A DNA stretch of 64,000 nt, taken from positions 8,623 to 72,622 of the forward strand of contig CAZHVT010000006.1 of the NCBI GenBank assembly GCA_964536205.1, written 5' to 3'. Shown piece by piece: positions 7,583 to 53,025 of this stretch (positions are counted from its first letter, which is position 1; each line of letters starts with the position of its first letter). The stretch is from an uncultured Gammaproteobacteria bacterium. Its GTDB lineage: Bacteria > Patescibacteriota > Patescibacteriia > Magasanikbacterales > GCA-002688135. Below the pieces are notes generated by a model. The model was given only the letters and a program-made list of their open reading frames with translations, was not told the origin of the DNA and did not search any database. The translations under genes and the position numbers were made by a program.

Positions 7583-8749
7583 ATGCAAGAATCAAATGCA
7601 AAGCGTGTTGTCCGCAGAATGTTTTATCGTGAATGTGTTGGTCAGTGGCTTGATCCGCATGAAATTGAGAACGGTAATATTCTGATTTTGATGGGAGATG
7701 AGCCATTGGAAATTCCTTACATTCAGGAATTGGGCTTTGATCCATTTAGTGTGTGTTCGGTTGAGAGAGATGAGGATATTTTTCGTAAGCAGCGGCGTAT
7801 GGTTGATGGGGGCGAAATTCAGGTTTCGCTATACTTTGGTCAGATGAAACGCTATCTCATGAAAATGCTTCATTGTTACAAGAAATTTGTTGTGCTGAAT
7901 TTGGACGTAGAGGGGAGCTATCGTTTCCAGCTTGATCCAGCTATGACATCTGTTGTGCAGTTTTGTGCAGCAAATCCTCGTACGGTTGTGGCGACGTATT
8001 CGTCAATTGGCCGAAATTTCAACACAGTGTGGGAAGGCATTAAGGCCCTCACATTACTTGTGTGGCTTGCACCAAAAAAGACACGTCAGCTGATGGCGAG
8101 TTTGGTTCATGCCTACACTGAGGCAGGGTGTACACAGCCGATTCGATTTGCTCTACGTGATGTGTTTTGGCTGGTGAGTCAGATTGAGCATCTTGTGCAG
8201 GCGTCAATGATTAAAGGTTGGATTTCGCGAGAAGAGTACGATTGTTTCAACCAAGGCTATGCCCTCTTGTGGAACTATGTGTTCACAAAGAGAAAGAAGA
8301 CGCTTCGGCTCCGCGACATTTACACCTTTGTTTCTTCTTGGACGCAGATTGAAGATGAAAATTCTTGTCTTCGAGTTCTGCCGTGTATGCATATGGGCAT
8401 CACAGATTTGATGCATGTATTATATCGCGCTCAGCGTCCTTGGATACAACGTTGTTACTTTACTCGTTATGAGGTTGCATCTCCATCTCGTCGACGAACT
8501 GTTCGAACCCATCTGAATCGATTGTGTGACTTGTTGATTTCTCGTCCTTTCATTTATGTCGATGAGGATGGTACTCGTCAGGATATTGATATTTCGTCTG
8601 TTCCTGAATGTGGTGTGGATGGATTCATTATTTGGAAAAATCCGCAGCGAAAGCAAAATTTGTATACAATGTTTCGGCCGCGTAGGTTGCGACCGGAGAA
8701 GTTTGGGCATGGTTCACATGCAGTAGAGTCTAGTTTAGGTCAACAGTAA
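7583..8749 (+). CDS. hypothetical protein (388 aa), first gene of the divergent operon
   Basis: The ORF is trimmed to the ATG at 7583, which is preceded by a gaggt SD. No recognisable motifs. Confidence 0.55.
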   Translation: MQESNAKRVVRRMFYRECVGQWLDPHEIENGNILILMGDEPLEIPYIQELGFDPFSVCSVERDEDIFRKQRRMVDGGEIQVSLYFGQMKRYLMKMLHCYKKFVVLNLDVEGSYRFQLDPAMTSVVQFCAANPRTVVATYSSIGRNFNTVWEGIKALTLLVWLAPKKTRQLMASLVHAYTEAGCTQPIRFALRDVFWLVSQIEHLVQASMIKGWISREEYDCFNQGYALLWNYVFTKRKKTLRLRDIYTFVSSWTQIEDENSCLRVLPCMHMGITDLMHVLYRAQRPWIQRCYFTRYEVASPSRRRTVRTHLNRLCDLLISRPFIYVDEDGTRQDIDISSVPECGVDGFIIWKNPQRKQNLYTMFRPRRLRPEKFGHGSHAVESSLGQQ

Positions 8750-9396: not shown

Positions 9397-9452
9397 CGCA
9401 TCTACGGATGCGTTTTTTTAATTAAAAAATCCTGCGCCTCGTGGGGGCAGGA
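9397..9452. terminator. back-to-back terminators (cgcatc-tacg-gatgcg + T7 for the plus strand; atcctgc..gcaggat preceded by an A-run for the minus strand)
   Basis: Stem-loops with U-runs on the appropriate strands between convergent genes. Confidence 0.65.
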
Positions 9453-9458
9453 TTGTGT

Positions 9459-9953
9459 CTACAGATCTCTGTTGAATCTTTCCACTCGATCTTCAAGAAT
9501 GCGATAAAGATGTGTGGGTGTTAGGCCTTGGATATCTTCGAATTGTTCGAGAATGCTGCATGTTGCATCGAATCGTTCGAGTGCATCTTCGTCATTGATT
9601 TCTGCGCGTGCTGCGTCTATATCGTATTCAACTTCTTCTGTTCCAGCATGTTCGATCATGTCTGCGATTTGCAGGATGGCGAGGCACATTTCTTTGTCCA
9701 TCAAGCCGGCGCTGACAAACATCCATTCCATCTGATCCATTGCGTCTTCGTGTTGAGCTTTACAGGCCTGTGAGACTACAACGCCCATAAACATCCAGCC
9801 CATGAAATCGCATGTGTCCACTTCTTCTCGAGTTAATCCACGTGACCAGAATTCTGGATCATGTTGTGTAGGATCAGATTCTTCGTCTGAAGTCAGCAGG
9901 GCCAACAGTTTTTCAAAAAATTGTTCACTTAGGTCTTCGGTTTTCAGATCCAT
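9459..9953 (-). CDS. small highly acidic hypothetical protein (164 aa, rich in D/E)
   Basis: The ORF is trimmed to the ATG at 9953, with an SD (aggaga) 6 nt upstream. Its composition is strongly acidic. Confidence 0.55.
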   Translation of the reverse strand: MDLKTEDLSEQFFEKLLALLTSDEESDPTQHDPEFWSRGLTREEVDTCDFMGWMFMGVVVSQACKAQHEDAMDQMEWMFVSAGLMDKEMCLAILQIADMIEHAGTEEVEYDIDAARAEINDEDALERFDATCSILEQFEDIQGLTPTHLYRILEDRVERFNRDL

Positions 9954-10092
9954 CAATTTTCTCCTTTAACTGGTTTTTTTGACCAAGTGCACTATAGTAG
10001 CATATTTTTAGTGTGCGTCAAGGGTGTTGGTATTTTTGGTGGTCATATGTTGTCTGATAAATTATACTGTATTTTGTCTATAATGTAGTTGT

Positions 10093-44911: not shown

Positions 44912-44972
44912 GGTTGACAGATGGCAGTATTGCTGTTATATTTGCAGCGGATCATTTTAATGGGGTACAGCT

Positions 44973-45893
44973 GTGAATCAAGAAAGTGTCAGATGGTATT
45001 TGAATACTGATGAGCCTGGAGTCTTTTTCACGCTTAATCTCGTAAAGATTTTAGCAGTGAATGTTGGGATTGCCCTTTTCATTTCTTTGAGCTTTAGCAT
45101 TTTTTGGTGGATTGATGATTACCAAGAATATGCAACATGGCAGGCAGTTGCTGGAAATGTGTGTCCGAGTGATCATCTTGATTTTAAATCTGCATGCCGT
45201 GATGGTTCAGAGATTCGGGATGTGATCCTTGACGAGCAATATCCTTTTGAACTGGTTCGCGGACAGCGAGAATGGCTTGATGAGCTCATTAGGGATTCAG
45301 AGCTGGATACCGGTGCAGATCACACGTCACTTGAAGATAGGGAATGGGTGGTTTCTGTAGCAAAATCTGGAGTGGTTCCTGACGATATGATTGAACCACC
45401 ATTTGAAGCAAATAATGGTTGGGGTTTATTCATATTTTCCATGAAAACCGGTGTGATTTCTACCCTTTTCTATCTTGCTTTTGTTTGTATGTTCTTGTTT
45501 TTCCAACATTCAATTACACGAACACGATACGCTGTGGTGCGTCAACGCATTGCATCATCTCTTGATTCTGACTTGTTGGGGATCTTCAACATTGCTCACC
45601 TGAAATTGCGCCGATTGCGAGATCTTGCCTCTAGTTCCACTAAGGTAGATGAACTGACAGAAGTACAGAAGACTGCTCAGCAACTCACAACTGAATTGAT
45701 TGAATTGGTTGTTATTCAGATGAGTCGTGATGAGGAGTCGCGCGTGCATCAAGTTTCTGTGCTGTCCAGTGATCTCAGTGAGGTTTCTGATGATGTTCAT
45801 CGTTTGCTTCATGTCGCGCGTGCATCTGCTGAAGCAGAAAAAGTGCATGCAGAAGCTGATGATGCACCAGATGGCGCCGTGCCATCTTCCTAA
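44973..45893 (+). CDS. hypothetical membrane protein (306 aa, GTG start)
   Basis: ORF with a GTG start ~30 nt after the promoter -10. Two hydrophobic segments. Acidic coiled-coil C-terminus. Confidence 0.5.
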   Translation: MNQESVRWYLNTDEPGVFFTLNLVKILAVNVGIALFISLSFSIFWWIDDYQEYATWQAVAGNVCPSDHLDFKSACRDGSEIRDVILDEQYPFELVRGQREWLDELIRDSELDTGADHTSLEDREWVVSVAKSGVVPDDMIEPPFEANNGWGLFIFSMKTGVISTLFYLAFVCMFLFFQHSITRTRYAVVRQRIASSLDSDLLGIFNIAHLKLRRLRDLASSSTKVDELTEVQKTAQQLTTELIELVVIQMSRDEESRVHQVSVLSSDLSEVSDDVHRLLHVARASAEAEKVHAEADDAPDGAVPSS

Positions 45894-45900
45894 TCAAATT

Positions 45901-45924
45901 CCCAGCCATATGCTGGGTTTTTTA
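45901..45924 (+). terminator. rho-independent terminator (cccagc-cata-tgctggg + T6)
   Basis: Read directly. Confidence 0.65.
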
Positions 45925-49213: not shown

Positions 49214-50660
49214 AATTTTCACAGCTATTTTACTTATTGCATTACTGGAGGCAACCTCACTCCTTGCTTTTTTCCATCCGCAAACCGAAATCTATAGTTT
49301 AGGTTTGTTCGGTTTGATTGCTGCTTTGCTTACGTACAGAAAGCTTGAGCATGGTCTTTTTCTGATTTTTGGTGAGTCGATTGTGAGCTCGTTTGGGCGA
49401 ATGCTCTCGTATGAAACTCTTTCATTGCGCATGTTGTTATTTTTTGTGGTTTTGTTTGTATGGTCTGTAAAACATGTTCCGACCTCGACACAGGGACGCA
49501 AAAAATTGGCCAAGGATTTTAATTCATCTGGCATAAGTTCGCCTCTTTTTGTTTTGTTGATACTTTTAGCGATCGCGTTTCAGCATGGTGTTTTTGCTGG
49601 AAGGGATATCATGACAGTTTTCAATGATTTTAATGGATATTTGTTTTTACTGCTTTTCATTCCTATCGCGACGATGAAATTCTCTGAATCGTCTTTTTCT
49701 TATTTCACTCGATTCATGACTATTGCGCTTTCATGGTTGATCGTTAAAAGTCTGATTATTTTCACTTATTTCTCTCATGTCTCACAACCATTTTTTGATT
49801 CTTGGTTTTACATTTGGCTCCGGGATATGCGTGTCGCTGAAATTACTCCATATGGAGATGGATTGGTTCGTGTGTTTTTGCAATCCCATATTTTTGTTGC
49901 TTTGGTATTTATTGTACTTGTTACGTTGCCCTCAAAATATAGGCCAAAGCATTTTACAAAACTACTGCTTGGTGTGACTTCTGTTGTTATGTTAAGTCTC
50001 TCTAGAAGTATGTGGCTGGGAGTTGGTTTTGTTTGTGTATGCCTTGTTGTGTGGCTCATCTATCGCAAGAAACTTGGATTAGTAAAGCGCATGAGTGTCA
50101 TAGGATTTTCTTCTATTCTTCTTGGATATGTCGTGATTCATGCGTTGTATATTTTGCCGTTTGGAGTGCATGAGAATCGTGCTCCACTTCATACATTGTT
50201 TACGCAACGAGTTCAGGCGATTGATTCTGAAGTTGCGGCGGCGAGTCGTTGGGAGCAGCTTCCTATTTTGTGGCGTGCTGTTACAGAAAAACCGATTCTT
50301 GGTCACGGATTTGGGAAATCTCTTATTATTAAAAATCCTCATGATTCATCGGTCAAAGAAGAGCGAACTGCGTTTGAGTGGGGATGGTTGGATATTTGGA
50401 TTAAGGCTGGGATATTGGGGGTGCTTACGTATGTGTGGCTTTTGTACAAAGTCATGAGAAGTGTATATCGATTACAATTGCCAAAAGGAAACTGCCAAGT
50501 TAAGCGCGGATTGGTTTGTACGGTTTTAGCCCTAATTATCACTAATATTTTCACTCCATATTTAAATCATCCTTTAGGAATTGGTGTTTTATCAATGATT
50601 TTTCTAACTGCGTTATTGTTGCGAAGTGGTTTACAGAATCACAATACTAAAATTACATAA
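49203..50660 (+). CDS. O-antigen polymerase/ligase-like (Wzy_C-type) polytopic membrane protein
   Basis: The ORF is trimmed to the ATG at 49203 (11-nt overlap with the upstream GT). Multiple TM helices with a large loop. Confidence 0.55.
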   Translation: MKRKIFTAILLIALLEATSLLAFFHPQTEIYSLGLFGLIAALLTYRKLEHGLFLIFGESIVSSFGRMLSYETLSLRMLLFFVVLFVWSVKHVPTSTQGRKKLAKDFNSSGISSPLFVLLILLAIAFQHGVFAGRDIMTVFNDFNGYLFLLLFIPIATMKFSESSFSYFTRFMTIALSWLIVKSLIIFTYFSHVSQPFFDSWFYIWLRDMRVAEITPYGDGLVRVFLQSHIFVALVFIVLVTLPSKYRPKHFTKLLLGVTSVVMLSLSRSMWLGVGFVCVCLVVWLIYRKKLGLVKRMSVIGFSSILLGYVVIHALYILPFGVHENRAPLHTLFTQRVQAIDSEVAAASRWEQLPILWRAVTEKPILGHGFGKSLIIKNPHDSSVKEERTAFEWGWLDIWIKAGILGVLTYVWLLYKVMRSVYRLQLPKGNCQVKRGLVCTVLALIITNIFTPYLNHPLGIGVLSMIFLTALLLRSGLQNHNTKIT

Positions 50661-50696
50661 ATACCGGTTTTTAGATATGTTGGATCTCCATGAGCA

Positions 50697-50725
50697 TTGA
50701 CAAAACCGGTTTTTTGTGTTATTAT
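50697..50725 (+). promoter_or_regulatory. promoter A: TTGACA-17-TATTAT, with AACCGGTT palindromes at 50663-50670 and within the spacer
   Basis: Consensus hexamers. Near-identical to the promoter at 51470-51498 and related to the one at 60962-60995. Confidence 0.55.
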
Positions 50726-50826
50726 GTTCGTAATTCTTGGGTGTATATCCAAGTCGTTGCCGAAAGGTAATTAGGGTGTTTGCTTGCGCATCTTCATTGC
50801 AAGTGTTCTTTTAAAGGAGTAGATGT

Positions 50827-51387
50827 ATGTCTACGGGAATGATGGGCTTCATGCCGAGTAATTGTCAGAACTGCAGTGATACCCGATGTGGTGGGAATTG
50901 TCATTCCTCCTATGATTTGGGTCCGTGCCCCATCTGTTGTCGTACGCGCTGTAATGACGCGAGTCACCTGACTGTTTTGCAGTTCGGAGGCGAAGGCGGT
51001 GGCGGAGGGAAAAGCATTGTGAGTCCCGGTGGTCCAACAGGAAAGCGTCCGGAGAAGTGGTGGAAACTCGAGAGTTGGTGGTATCGCTTTGTGAATTTCT
51101 GCATCGTCAAGGGGCCCAATGAGATGTCTCTCATGATGAGCAATCACGGCGATCGAGATCCGCTCAAGGCCACACGGGTTCAGTTCTTCATCGCGCCAGC
51201 GGGAAAGGAGCAGGAAGCTTGTGGGATGCTGTGCCAGATCAAAGGACTGACTCACAGCGAGTTCCTTCATGGATGGGAGATTACTGGTAGTGCGCTGATC
51301 AATGGCACCGGCGATATCGATGCTGCGGTTGACTTCCACGCCACCTACAACCACCAGACGCGAATTGGCACACTAATATTCATGTAA
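50827..51387 (+). CDS. small protein family member 1 (186 aa): Cys-rich N-terminus + Gly-rich linker + conserved ~110-aa C-terminal domain (WW..WW...IVKGPNEM...)
   Basis: SD ggagtag. GC ~52% versus ~38% for its neighbours. Paralog of 51567..51998. Confidence 0.6.
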   Translation: MSTGMMGFMPSNCQNCSDTRCGGNCHSSYDLGPCPICCRTRCNDASHLTVLQFGGEGGGGGKSIVSPGGPTGKRPEKWWKLESWWYRFVNFCIVKGPNEMSLMMSNHGDRDPLKATRVQFFIAPAGKEQEACGMLCQIKGLTHSEFLHGWEITGSALINGTGDIDAAVDFHATYNHQTRIGTLIFM

Positions 51388-51407
51388 TCGACGGTACGCC
51401 GTCACAA

Positions 51408-51445
51408 AGACCCTCGCATGGGATATGCGGGGGTCTAGTTTTTTA
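51408..51445 (+). terminator. rho-independent terminator (agaccctcgcatgggatatgcgggggtct + T-run), duplicated at 52012-52049
   Basis: Read directly. Confidence 0.7.
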
Positions 51446-51469
51446 TATAATTTAGCTACTGCTCTGGGG

Positions 51470-51498
51470 TTGACAGATGCGGCTTTTTCTGCTATTAT
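51470..51498 (+). promoter_or_regulatory. promoter B: TTGACA-17-TATTAT (paralogous copy of promoter A)
   Basis: Identical hexamers and the same gtt after the -10. The downstream UTR element gtgttcttttaa..ggagtagaYgtATGtct is conserved. Confidence 0.55.
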
Positions 51499-51566
51499 GT
51501 TGTTATCTTTGAGTGTTCTTTTAACCGCACTGGTGTATTCCAGTGCTTGCACATAGGAGTAGACGT

Positions 51567-51998
51567 ATGTCTAACGAAACCCCTTTTTGGATGACGGAAG
51601 AAGGTAAGTCTGGGATCGCGGCCATGAAAGAGAGTCCTACTGCGAAGCCTGCCCAAGATGGTCAGCGCTGGTGGGTTAAGCAAAACTGGTGGGAGACCTG
51701 TAAGAGTTTTCATATCGTTGGAGAAGGTCCCAATGAGATGAAGCTGTCGATGTCACTGTTTGGTCCGCGCGACGTGCAGGCTTGCACCACGGTGTATTTC
51801 AAGATTCGTCCCACATCTGGTCCGGATCTTTCTCACCGGCGGTTTGTTTGTCTCATCGACGGCATCCGTCATTCTGCCTTTCCTGATACGTGGGAATTGA
51901 CCGGCCTCGCGCATGTTGGTGCACGGTGGATTCCGTTCACCGCTGATTACTCGATCCCCAACAAGAGAACCGGGATGATCATTCTCAACCCGAGCTAA
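51567..51998 (+). CDS. small protein family member 2 (143 aa): low-complexity N-terminus + the same conserved C-terminal domain (WWVKQNWW...IVGEGPNEM...)
   Basis: The ORF is trimmed to the ATG at 51567 to match the conserved SD/start context of member 1. Confidence 0.55.
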   Translation: MSNETPFWMTEEGKSGIAAMKESPTAKPAQDGQRWWVKQNWWETCKSFHIVGEGPNEMKLSMSLFGPRDVQACTTVYFKIRPTSGPDLSHRRFVCLIDGIRHSAFPDTWELTGLAHVGARWIPFTADYSIPNKRTGMIILNPS

Positions 51999-52011
51999 GG
52001 CTCACGAACAA

Positions 52012-52049
52012 AGACCCTCGCAGGGATATGCGGGGGTCTAGTTTTTTTT
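52012..52049 (+). terminator. rho-independent terminator (second copy)
   Basis: agaccctcgcagggatatgcgggggtct + T8. Confidence 0.7.
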
Positions 52050-52053
52050 ACAA

Positions 52054-52089
52054 ATATCAGTACCGGGTACTAGTACCCGGTACTGATAT
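52054..52089. repeat. perfect 36-bp palindrome ATATCAGTACCGGGTACTAGTACCCGGTACTGATAT abutting the fmt stop
   Basis: Read directly. It sits between convergent gene ends. Confidence 0.8.
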
Positions 52090-53025
52090 TTAGGAGGGGA
52101 GACCGTAGCCGTTAAGGTATTGTTCTCCGGTTATCCATTTTTTTCCTTCTGGCTGCACTTCATCTAGTACTAATGCATCGCCACCACATTGTACGGCAAT
52201 CGACCCCTCGTGTTCAAAATACTCTCCAGGTTTTCCATCTCGTCCGATATTTCGGGCGCTTTTTATTTTTAATCGTTTTCCATTTATCATGCAATATGTT
52301 CCAGGCTCTGGATTGAGTGCGCGGATGCGCCGTTCTAAACTTACTGCATCCTTATCCCAAAACAATGATCCGTCATTTGTAGTTATCATTTTGGTGAAAG
52401 AAGCCTTGTTGTGATTTTGCTCAACCGGTTTTAATGTTCCGTTTATGTATAGTGCCAAAGCTTCTGGAATGATGTTTGCAGATAGTCGAGAGAGTGTATC
52501 TGATAATTCCTGATATGTTTCGTTTCCATTTAATTTGTATTCCATTTGCGTCAGAATTGGTCCGTGATCCATTTGCTCATCAATCAACATGATACTCGTT
52601 CCGGTTTTATGATTACCTTTTAAAATTGCGTATTGGATTGGTGCTGGGCCGCGGTATTCTGGGAGTAGGGAAGGGTGAACATTTACAGTTTTAAACTTCG
52701 GCATGTTGAGTAGATTGTCTGGGATGAGTTTTCCGTATGCGACCACACATGCAATATCCGCATTCATTTTTTTTATCTGTTCATCAATTGAACCATCTTT
52801 GAGTGATTCTGGTTGTAGCGGCAAAATTGATTTTGTTTTTGACCATTCTTTGACAGGAGATTCCTTCAGCTCTTTTTTTCGTCCGGCTGGTTTGTCTGGT
52901 TGTGTAATCACTCCGATAATATAGAACCGTTGATCATTTGCGATGGATTCAAAAATCGGGACTGCAAAATCTGATGTCCCGATGAGTAGAATATTTATTA
53001 TGTCAGAGGAGTGATTGTTTTTCAT
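52090..53025 (-). CDS. fmt: methionyl-tRNA formyltransferase
   Basis: Formyltransferase N-terminal domain (ILLIGTSDFAVPIF; HPSLLPEYRG) and C-terminal domain. Overlaps def by 23 nt. Confidence 0.85.
   Translation of the reverse strand: MKNNHSSDIINILLIGTSDFAVPIFESIANDQRFYIIGVITQPDKPAGRKKELKESPVKEWSKTKSILPLQPESLKDGSIDEQIKKMNADIACVVAYGKLIPDNLLNMPKFKTVNVHPSLLPEYRGPAPIQYAILKGNHKTGTSIMLIDEQMDHGPILTQMEYKLNGNETYQELSDTLSRLSANIIPEALALYINGTLKPVEQNHNKASFTKMITTNDGSLFWDKDAVSLERRIRALNPEPGTYCMINGKRLKIKSARNIGRDGKPGEYFEHEGSIAVQCGGDALVLDEVQPEGKKWITGEQYLNGYGLPS

Follow-up and report, generated by a model that had tools for sequence, protein, structure and literature searches.

How do two genes almost without recognizable relatives come to stand between housekeeping genes, each provided with all the signals required for its own expression, and what do these signals control? 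The question is raised by a short cassette in contig CAZHVT010000006.1 of assembly GCA_964536205.1, a candidate phyla radiation (CPR; Parcubacteria) genome, of which a stretch of 64,000 nucleotides (positions 8,623 to 72,622, hereafter the window) was analysed. Between the convergent genes wzy and fmt, two open reading frames (ORFs) follow one another on the plus strand, gene A (50827-51387, 186 aa) and gene B (51567-51998, 143 aa). The best explanation for this locus, which must be held tentatively at somewhat below an even chance, is that A and B form two independent transcription units, gained horizontally, controlled at the level of translation and perhaps autoregulated, and that they encode paralogs within a very scarce orphan family, the small, soluble members of which are predicted to be all-beta.

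The two products have a C-terminal domain of ~120 aa in common. Their BLASTP alignment (33% identity over 144 columns, E=1e-17) contains the motifs WW-x4-WW, GPNEM, I-x-G-x-x-H-S, W-E-x-T-G and Y...R-x-G, and upholds the original prediction, made from the sequence before this analysis, of two adjacent paralogs with a common C-terminal domain and modular N-termini; when the two halves of the cassette are aligned with one another, the similarity of the domain is significant. In A, the shared domain corresponds to residues 64-186 (51016-51384) and is predicted to be all-beta. It is preceded by a Cys-rich extension (residues 1-63) comprising eight Cys and a 12-aa internal repeat, and then a Gly-rich linker. 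In B, the domain (residues ~23-143, 51633-51995) follows a short N-terminus of the non-Cys type.

Relatives of these proteins are extremely rare. When 1.84 billion cluster representatives were searched exhaustively with HMMER, only four proteins were retrieved, namely A, B, a clear homolog of 107 aa named P0003 (E=4e-6, with the motif GPNNMQIMMSVFG), and a 2729-aa repeat protein (cadherin-like repeats, as judged from its sequence) that was deemed spurious, its E=1e-5 being summed over 10 weak stretches. A variant 90% identical to P0003, named P0006, lies on another contig. From word-indexed searches, the only addition was a fragment from Tara Oceans that is identical to residues 1-100 of A'. 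The latter is a 183-aa ortholog of A encoded in unannotated DNA of a sister genome, 'Parcubacteria group bacterium ARS125', at the same position as A; this genome was found by scanning loci for the adjacent gene fmt (92% identical). The family therefore consists of five sequences: A, B, P0003, P0006 and A'. Two side observations concern the surroundings of the more distant members. P0006 (contig L006, 3-2484) adjoins a divergently oriented ABC exporter of 569 aa (ABC_membrane + ABC_tran) and two small proteins of 96 and 68 aa that are predicted to be membrane proteins, on a contig too short to judge this association. Directly 3' of the P0003 terminator (contig L005, 664-774), a stretch of 53% GC contains a small Cys-rich ORF (...GGCSCNCAQCDIGAHCRNRQRGCNV*) that is similar to the N-terminus of A; it could be a separate partner gene, which is fused to the domain in A, or be due to chance.

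The claim that each gene of the window is a self-contained transcription unit, with its own promoter, leader and terminator, is upheld by the signals around it. Promoter A (50697-50725) and promoter B (51470-51498), on the plus strand like all the signals that follow, both consist of TTGACA-17-TATTAT with a TG upstream (11/12 matches each), and promoter A is nearly identical in ARS125. The near-identity attributed to the two promoters is correct for the hexamers and too strong for the spacers, in which only 11 of 17 positions match. In the leaders, the 13-mer AGTGTTCTTTTAA is identical in both units (50802-50814 in A, 51512-51524 in B); it is pyrimidine-rich and is a candidate anti-Shine-Dalgarno sequence that would pair with AGGAG. 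The 19-mer AGGAGTAGAYGTATGTCTA at 50815 and 51555, which includes the Shine-Dalgarno sequence (SD) and the start codon, matches at 18 of its 19 positions, and a conserved block of the 5' untranslated region (UTR) around the SD is thereby confirmed. So is the near-identity of the intrinsic terminators, since terminator A (51408-51444; stem-loop 51408-51436, then T6) and terminator B (52012-52049; stem-loop 52012-52039, then T8) are alike over ~42 nt save for a single 1-nt indel, with stems of 11-13 bp followed by T runs. No other copy of the terminator sequence was found in the window or in the genome contig collection as a dispersed repeat or mobile-element end, and its 21 matches in metagenomes are all chance, the stem context being missing. 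In A only, the terminator is preceded by a 3' UTR hairpin, GACGG-UACG-CCGUC (51390-51403), with the same sequence in ARS125. Promoter A had also been described as flanked by AACCGGTT palindromes. Two boxes are indeed present 42 nt apart and are kept in ARS125: AATACCGGTTTTT (50660-50672), directly 3' of the wzy stop codon and a candidate operator half, and AAAACCGGTTTTT (50702-50714). The second, however, sits inside the promoter spacer and does not flank the promoter.

The evidence for translational control comes from the leaders. All five genes have two hairpins with a GUAU loop, one located in the leader and the other enclosing the start codon. In A, the region combining the SD (AGGAG) and the start-codon hairpin covers 50815-50834, and the hairpin itself, GUAGA-UGUAUG-UCUAC (50819-50834, AUG at 50827), is the same in A'. 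The corresponding region of B (51555-51573, SD again AGGAG) contains UAGAC-GUAU-GUCUA (51560-51573, AUG at 51567), and both P0003 and P0006 have GUGAC-GUAU-GUCAC. The leader hairpins are CUUGGGU-GUAU-AUCCAAG in A (50736-50753), GCACUGG-UGUAUU-CCAGUGC in B (51527-51546), GUACUUGU-GUAU-ACAAGUAC in P0003 and GCGCUUGU-GUAU-GCACGCGC in P0006. When the ten hairpins are aligned in register, GUAU is invariant and the 6-bp stem is paired in 88.9% of the cells, while all six stem pairs vary on both sides. The covariation score of 0.95 compares with 0.31 in shuffles (0/500 reach 0.95) and with at most 0.21 when the partners are slid. Pairwise comparisons agree, as all four substitutions between the leader hairpins of A and A' keep the pairing and two compensatory pairs distinguish those of P0003 and P0006. 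The leader of A contains two more hairpins (50756-50804), the first of which (50756-50771) has a GAAA tetraloop; both are kept in ARS125. The pairings predicted in the initiation region are UGUUCUU:AGGAGUA over the SD and GUAGA:UCUAC over the start codon. A pyrimidine tract that could pair with the SD occurs in every family member; this U-rich stretch is part of the 13-mer in A and B and reads CUCUUCC in P0003.

Because these hairpins had been chosen by eye, a leave-out test was performed with a covariance model that was built from the four P0003/P0006 hairpins only and searched, with filters off, against both strands of the window and ARS125 (81 kb). The top three matches were the leader hairpin of B (23.9 bits, E=2e-4), its start-codon hairpin (18 bits, E=0.019) and the start-codon hairpin of A' (17.5 bits); the start-codon hairpin of A ranked seventh. 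With the full covariance model, nothing else exceeded 11 bits in 99 kb. At the level of sequence, the conserved leader, together with the pairing of the SD and the two GUAU hairpins, points to a control exerted at translation initiation.

The occurrence of the same loop in two hairpins with freely varying stems has, by analogy, the look of a protein-binding operator. A hairpin at the start codon with a second one upstream is the classical site layout for a dimeric or two-site RNA-binding repressor. The known translational operators (MS2/PP7 coat protein on the replicase start, T4 RegA, the E. coli ThrRS leader, CsrA sites) are comparable to the A and B units, in which the start codon is in a hairpin and an upstream hairpin has the same loop. 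As far as the sequence can indicate, the repeated GUAU hairpin with covarying stems, one of them over the initiation region, is present in 5/5 genes. The loop (YGUAUN), however, matches none of these operators, Rfam provides no match, and the encoded protein resembles none of their repressors.

In the mechanism favored here, the mRNAs of A and B would be made constitutively and stabilised by the hairpin near the predicted 5' end together with the terminator hairpin. Translation would be gated at initiation by the sequestration of the SD and the AUG, and the paired GUAU loops would constitute the binding site of a trans-acting factor. As the GUAU motif travels with the gene across hosts and contexts, the encoded protein itself would be the most economical candidate for this factor, in a case of autogenous translational repression; a conserved host factor binding GUAU would fit as well. 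The protein is taken here for a binding module, in preference to an enzyme or a toxin that is secreted. A bolder version, which seems rather improbable, is that of a portable self-regulating mini-gene: the ~100-aa beta domain would be an unseen fold that binds the GUAU hairpins of the leader and of the AUG, represses its own synthesis and is autonomous in any CPR host, and the hypervariable Cys-rich N-terminus of A would supply a second, fast-evolving interaction surface.

Several points weigh against translational control by such an operator. The hairpins were first picked by eye, those of the A and A' leaders obtained weak scores in the leave-out test, and 158 kb of unrelated control DNA gave one match of 20.6 bits. 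The leaders folded as single sequences are not significant (z of -1.3 for A and -0.8 for B). The exact 18-nt initiation region of P0003, GGAGGTGACGTATGTCAC, is found in four IMG/VR contigs (L036-L039, two of them near-identical), where it heads unrelated phage genes (MSQ...); this is about the chance number, and the start hairpin alone would not be family-specific. Autoregulation is pure inference, and the proteins, with pI values of 6.4-8.5, lack both a basic character and a match to any known RNA-binding fold. The transcription start sites, the mRNA abundance and the translation of A and B are all inferred. The five members fall in effectively three lineages, which makes a small sample. Finally, the all-beta assignment of the domain is only tentative because the two AlphaFold runs produced poor models.

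These models are all-beta but of low confidence (pLDDT, the predicted local distance difference test, of 51 and 60), and a Foldseek comparison of the predicted models with PDB and BFVD gave no match. Of the profile and structure predictions envisaged for the domain from the outset, the profile does find P0003, and the models give no confident fold. A likeness to IgG Fc, insignificant in a PDB sequence profile (E~0.3), comes down to a pattern formed by a B-strand Cys and a C-strand Trp; an Ig fold was rejected because the domain of A and B is too short beyond this Trp. From sequence prediction, A, B and their relatives are soluble proteins of near-neutral pI without any predicted signal peptide or transmembrane segment.

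The acquisition of the units is documented by genome comparison. The window and ARS125 are collinear. In a relative with ~75% fmt identity, wzy and fmt are found ~30 bp apart with neither A nor B, which identifies the cassette as a lineage-specific acquired insertion; it is absent from contig L014. ARS125 has A' and not B, and the slot of B is occupied by an unrelated 130-aa gene of host-like GC on the opposite strand (contig L007, 8922-9360). The promoter of this gene (TTGACG-17-TATACT) ends ~8 nt before the ATG, so that its mRNA may be leaderless, and its sole match is a weak one to the PADLOC family PDC-M53A (E=0.011). Between the contigs of P0003 and P0006, homology is confined to the segment that runs from the -10 box to the terminator, and the DNA upstream is unrelated; the whole unit is therefore found in more than one setting and in hosts that differ in GC, which fits the description of the cassette as portable. 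At the other end of the locus, between terminator B and the fmt stop codon, a 40-nt perfect palindrome without spacer (52052-52091, AAATATCAGTACCGGGTACT followed by AGTACCCGGTACTGATATTT) is unique in the window. ARS125 has only AAATATCAGGCTTATTTAGG at this place. The palindrome may be the scar of an insertion or a site of recombination, and its membership in the cassette is uncertain.

Base composition is in agreement with an external origin. The coding GC is 0.531 for A and 0.525 for B, with a GC at third codon positions (GC3) of 0.59 and 0.58, respectively, compared with a window mean GC of 0.421 and with 0.38-0.43 (GC3 0.28-0.37) in the neighbouring genes. The cassette has the highest 430-bp GC of the 64-kb window (0.547 vs a mean of 0.421, sd 0.034). 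The GC-rich character first attributed to it is thus genuine, with a coding GC of ~53%, and represents the window maximum; only the background was set too low, being ~42% for the window and 38-41% for the neighbours instead of 38% overall. The difference persists when the composition is recomputed over the full genes (0.531/0.525 vs 0.421). Moreover, GC3 is 0.55-0.62 in every family member despite their divergence, against 0.28-0.37 in the neighbour genes of the window and of ARS125, 0.31 in the neighbour of P0003 in L005 and 0.28-0.31 in host ribosomal-protein genes. By its sequence, the codon usage of the family is foreign, and its maintenance argues for selection on codon choice or repeated import rather than a recent one-off transfer. 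An unusual global mRNA structure was considered as the cause of the high GC, and was not convincing (z=-0.6 for A, -2.1 for B). Horizontal acquisition is therefore upheld as an insertion, on account of both the wzy-fmt junction of the ~75% relative and the foreign GC3.

The history of the two genes appears more complex than one duplication. B is 40-42% identical to the P0003 clade and A only 24%, and synonymous sites are saturated between A and B. Since B is also closer to the P0003 clade than to A, the two genes are old paralogs. Yet their flanks are near-identical, which implies that these were homogenised, either by gene conversion or by the swapping of a coding sequence into a shared expression frame; the terminator of A matches that of B better than that of A', which differs at two stem positions and is still paired. 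The target of a diversity-generating retroelement would have a template and variable repeat pair, with adenine-specific changes and a reverse transcriptase nearby; a scan of 50500-52200 for repeats detected no repeated copy of any coding segment, and the divergence runs across the whole gene. In the proposal of a cassette duplicated as a self-contained unit, the paralogs and the self-contained units are real, and the duplication of one unit is too simple in view of the old paralogs, the near-identical flanks and the absence of B in ARS125.

Evolutionary rates are also unequal within the locus. Between the window and ARS125, the neighbouring genes (wzy, a glycosyltransferase gene and fmt) show 76-84% DNA identity across the flanking region, with a synonymous divergence (dS) of 1.1-1.3 and a ratio of nonsynonymous to synonymous divergence (dN/dS) of 0.05-0.12. 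For the shared domain of A and A', the identity falls to 66% for DNA and 59% for protein (dS 1.2, dN/dS 0.28), and the first ~60 codons, Cys-rich in both, are effectively unalignable (37% DNA identity). The 5' flank and leader of A are 85.5% identical to those of A', and its 3' UTR and terminator 90.9%. Judging from these sequences, the rate of change in the non-coding flanks is roughly a tenth of that at synonymous sites (dS ~1.2, nearly saturated), and the A protein evolves faster than its neighbours, with the Cys-rich N-terminal extension fastest of all. Within this extension, the segment 50860-50916 contains AATTGTCAGAACTGCAGTGAT and AATTGTCATTCCTCCTATGAT, 36 nt (12 aa) apart and encoding NCQNCSD and NCHSSYD, which suggests that it grew by tandem duplication; such an event may help explain the very fast divergence from A'. 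The dN/dS of 0.28 between A and A' and of 0.08 between P0003 and P0006 indicates that both pairs are real proteins under constraint.

A unit of this type invites comparison with the moron concept of Juhala and Hendrix. Phage morons are independent transcription units added to phage genomes (PMC3594210). Like them, A and B each have a sigma-70 promoter (11/12) and a factor-independent terminator, differ in composition from the flanking genes (GC 0.53 and GC3 0.59 vs 0.38-0.43 and 0.28-0.37) and constitute extra DNA relative to related genomes at the same position. Unlike them, they are not located in a phage or prophage, their neighbours being wzy, a glycosyltransferase gene, fmt, def and priA, with no match in PHROG, IMG/VR or GenBank phages, and they carry a conserved structured leader that is outside the moron definition. 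They are moron-like and yet no morons, as they do not reside in a phage. The first rival explanation is that of a gene of biological conflict, a fast-evolving effector, toxin, immunity, anti-phage or anti-defence factor brought by a moron-like phage or mobile-element unit, in which the leader merely tunes expression. It has the merit of accounting for the patchy, lineage-specific presence of the genes and the variable slot (B vs the unrelated 130-aa gene of ARS125), the foreign GC3, the raised dN/dS and hypervariable Cys-rich N-terminus, the own promoter and terminator found in morons, and the ABC exporter near P0006. None of A, B, A' and P0003, however, has a match in Pfam, NCBIfam, PHROGs or PADLOC, and searches of IMG/VR, JGI metagenome contigs, PLSDB plasmids and GenBank phages retrieved no relative of the proteins. 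The units are surrounded by housekeeping genes, no secretion or toxin partner accompanies a protein devoid of signal peptide and transmembrane segment, purifying selection is strong between P0003 and P0006, and the dN/dS of A is still below 1. This explanation is for these reasons considered unlikely, while keeping a real minority chance.

The same data give no direct support to the more specific proposal of an effector, bacteriocin or immunity-like function, as no toxin, immunity, secretion or C39-peptidase gene was found nearby, in addition to the lack of a signal peptide, of a transmembrane segment and of Pfam, PADLOC and PHROG matches. A class II bacteriocin with a double-glycine leader would require a hydrophobic residue at position -4, where the 'LQFGG' of A has Q; the cassette has no exporter or immunity gene near it, and the exporter beside P0006 (ABC_membrane + ABC_tran) has no C39 domain. 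Polymorphic toxin/immunity pairs differ in that A and B are paralogs of each other and have no Pfam, NCBIfam or PADLOC domain. Integron cassettes, made of a promoterless ORF and attC, differ as well, since the ORFs of A and B have their own promoters and their 3' hairpin, followed by a T run, is an intrinsic terminator with a sequence encountered nowhere else in the collections searched.

A second rival dispenses with repression altogether and regards the units as designed for high expression, the hairpins being mRNA stabilisers instead of repressor sites, the product an abundant structural or binding protein, and the loop a feature of RNase resistance or ribosome loading. The stem-loop close to the predicted 5' end and the strong terminator at the 3' end would then shield a message that is transcribed and translated at a high rate. 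The layout is comparable to that of the 5' mRNA stabilisers of the ompA and aprE types. In favour of this view, the promoters of the units are near-consensus with a TG upstream, the first hairpin starts shortly after the -10 box (10-28 nt in the window units, 5 nt in L005, the P0003 contig), a strong SD stands at a good distance from the start codon, and the stability of the terminators is very high. Three observations speak against it. The leader hairpin has no fixed place (it begins 10 nt beyond the -10 box in A and 28 nt in B), the SD and AUG are, by prediction, base-paired and not exposed, and codon usage is unlike that of the host ribosomal-protein genes, with their GC3 of 0.28-0.31. This explanation is an unlikely one, and the earlier description of the family as strongly expressed was not sustained, as it goes back to the promoter consensus and to nothing else.

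The predicted pairing of the SD raises a third possibility, that of an RNA thermometer or stress unit, in which the U-rich anti-SD and the weak AUG hairpin would melt on a physical cue such as temperature and release the synthesis of a stress-induced small protein. The resemblance to the fourU and ROSE thermometers includes a predicted multi-hairpin 5' UTR, a U-rich tract that would pair with AGGA(G) and an AUG within a short, weak hairpin. The genes ibpA, agsA and hsp17 are monocistronic and combine strong promoters with leaders of several hairpins. The small genes A and B share this architecture and in addition are tandem paralogs encoding a protein predicted to be all-beta. No Rfam thermometer family is detected even at E<=5, in keeping with the absence of any Rfam family for the cassette at gathering score or at that threshold, and the invariant GUAU loop, repeated in a second hairpin, would be left unexplained. 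The protein is not a small heat-shock protein (HSP20, alpha-crystallin domain): there is no Pfam match at E<=1, and hhalign, run against five such sequences, gave a probability below 1%. The lineage was moreover retrieved from a mesopelagic Tara Oceans sample; this genome or ARS125 is represented in Tara station 039 (mesopelagic), SRR8062333, SRR9166048 and JGI 3300009106. The mesopelagic zone is a thermally stable habitat. A thermometer is accordingly regarded as quite improbable.

One last alternative concerns the coding nature of the genes. Antisense ORFs in phase with the sense codons cover A (50794-51354, minus strand, 186 aa) and A' (contig L007 of ARS125, 9412-10080, plus strand, 222 aa). 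The family hardly uses the codons TTA, CTA and TCA (0-3 per gene, against 21 of the 311 codons of fmt), which keeps the antisense frame open; this frame is probably a side effect of codon bias, although the avoidance is striking. That the units would be RNA genes or chance ORFs, or that the antisense frame would be the real gene, agrees with the open antisense frames over A and in ARS125 and with the absence of database homologs, and is nevertheless virtually dismissed by the sense-frame similarity of A and B (E=1e-17 though the DNA has diverged), the dN/dS of 0.08-0.28, the SD and AUG conserved ahead of the sense frame, the interruption of the antisense frame in B and the lack of an Rfam family.

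The window contains another stand-alone unit (44914-45917), with a promoter TTGACA-17-TATATT, an ORF of 306 aa (44973-45893) and a terminator (45901-45917). The ORF has no Pfam match above threshold and, unlike A and B, a host-like GC3 (0.35). ARS125 lacks this unit and has the flippase promoter immediately after the rpsI terminator. Both junctions of the unit share 'TTTTTT..TTGA', as would result from an insertion between the tail of a terminator and a -35 box.

The genomes of the CPR (Patescibacteria) are full of unannotated genes, and to our knowledge almost nothing is known of post-transcriptional regulation in these organisms. In common with other ORFan genes of the CPR, A and B lack an annotated domain and any detectable homolog beyond a few closely related uncultured genomes. 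They differ from them by a defined and conserved regulatory architecture and by the evidence that the whole unit has moved or been exchanged between hosts. The locus therefore offers a compact case in which an orphan family is provided with its own promoter, structured leader and terminator, together with a new candidate cis-regulatory RNA motif. If the GUAU hairpins are indeed a protein-binding operator, they would define a new pair of RNA motif and protein and an example of a horizontally acquired gene that brings its own regulation. Should the operator reading be false, the cassette would still represent a clean moron-like gain of genes outside phages, and the presence of a second unit in the same window suggests that this may be a general route of gene acquisition in these genomes.

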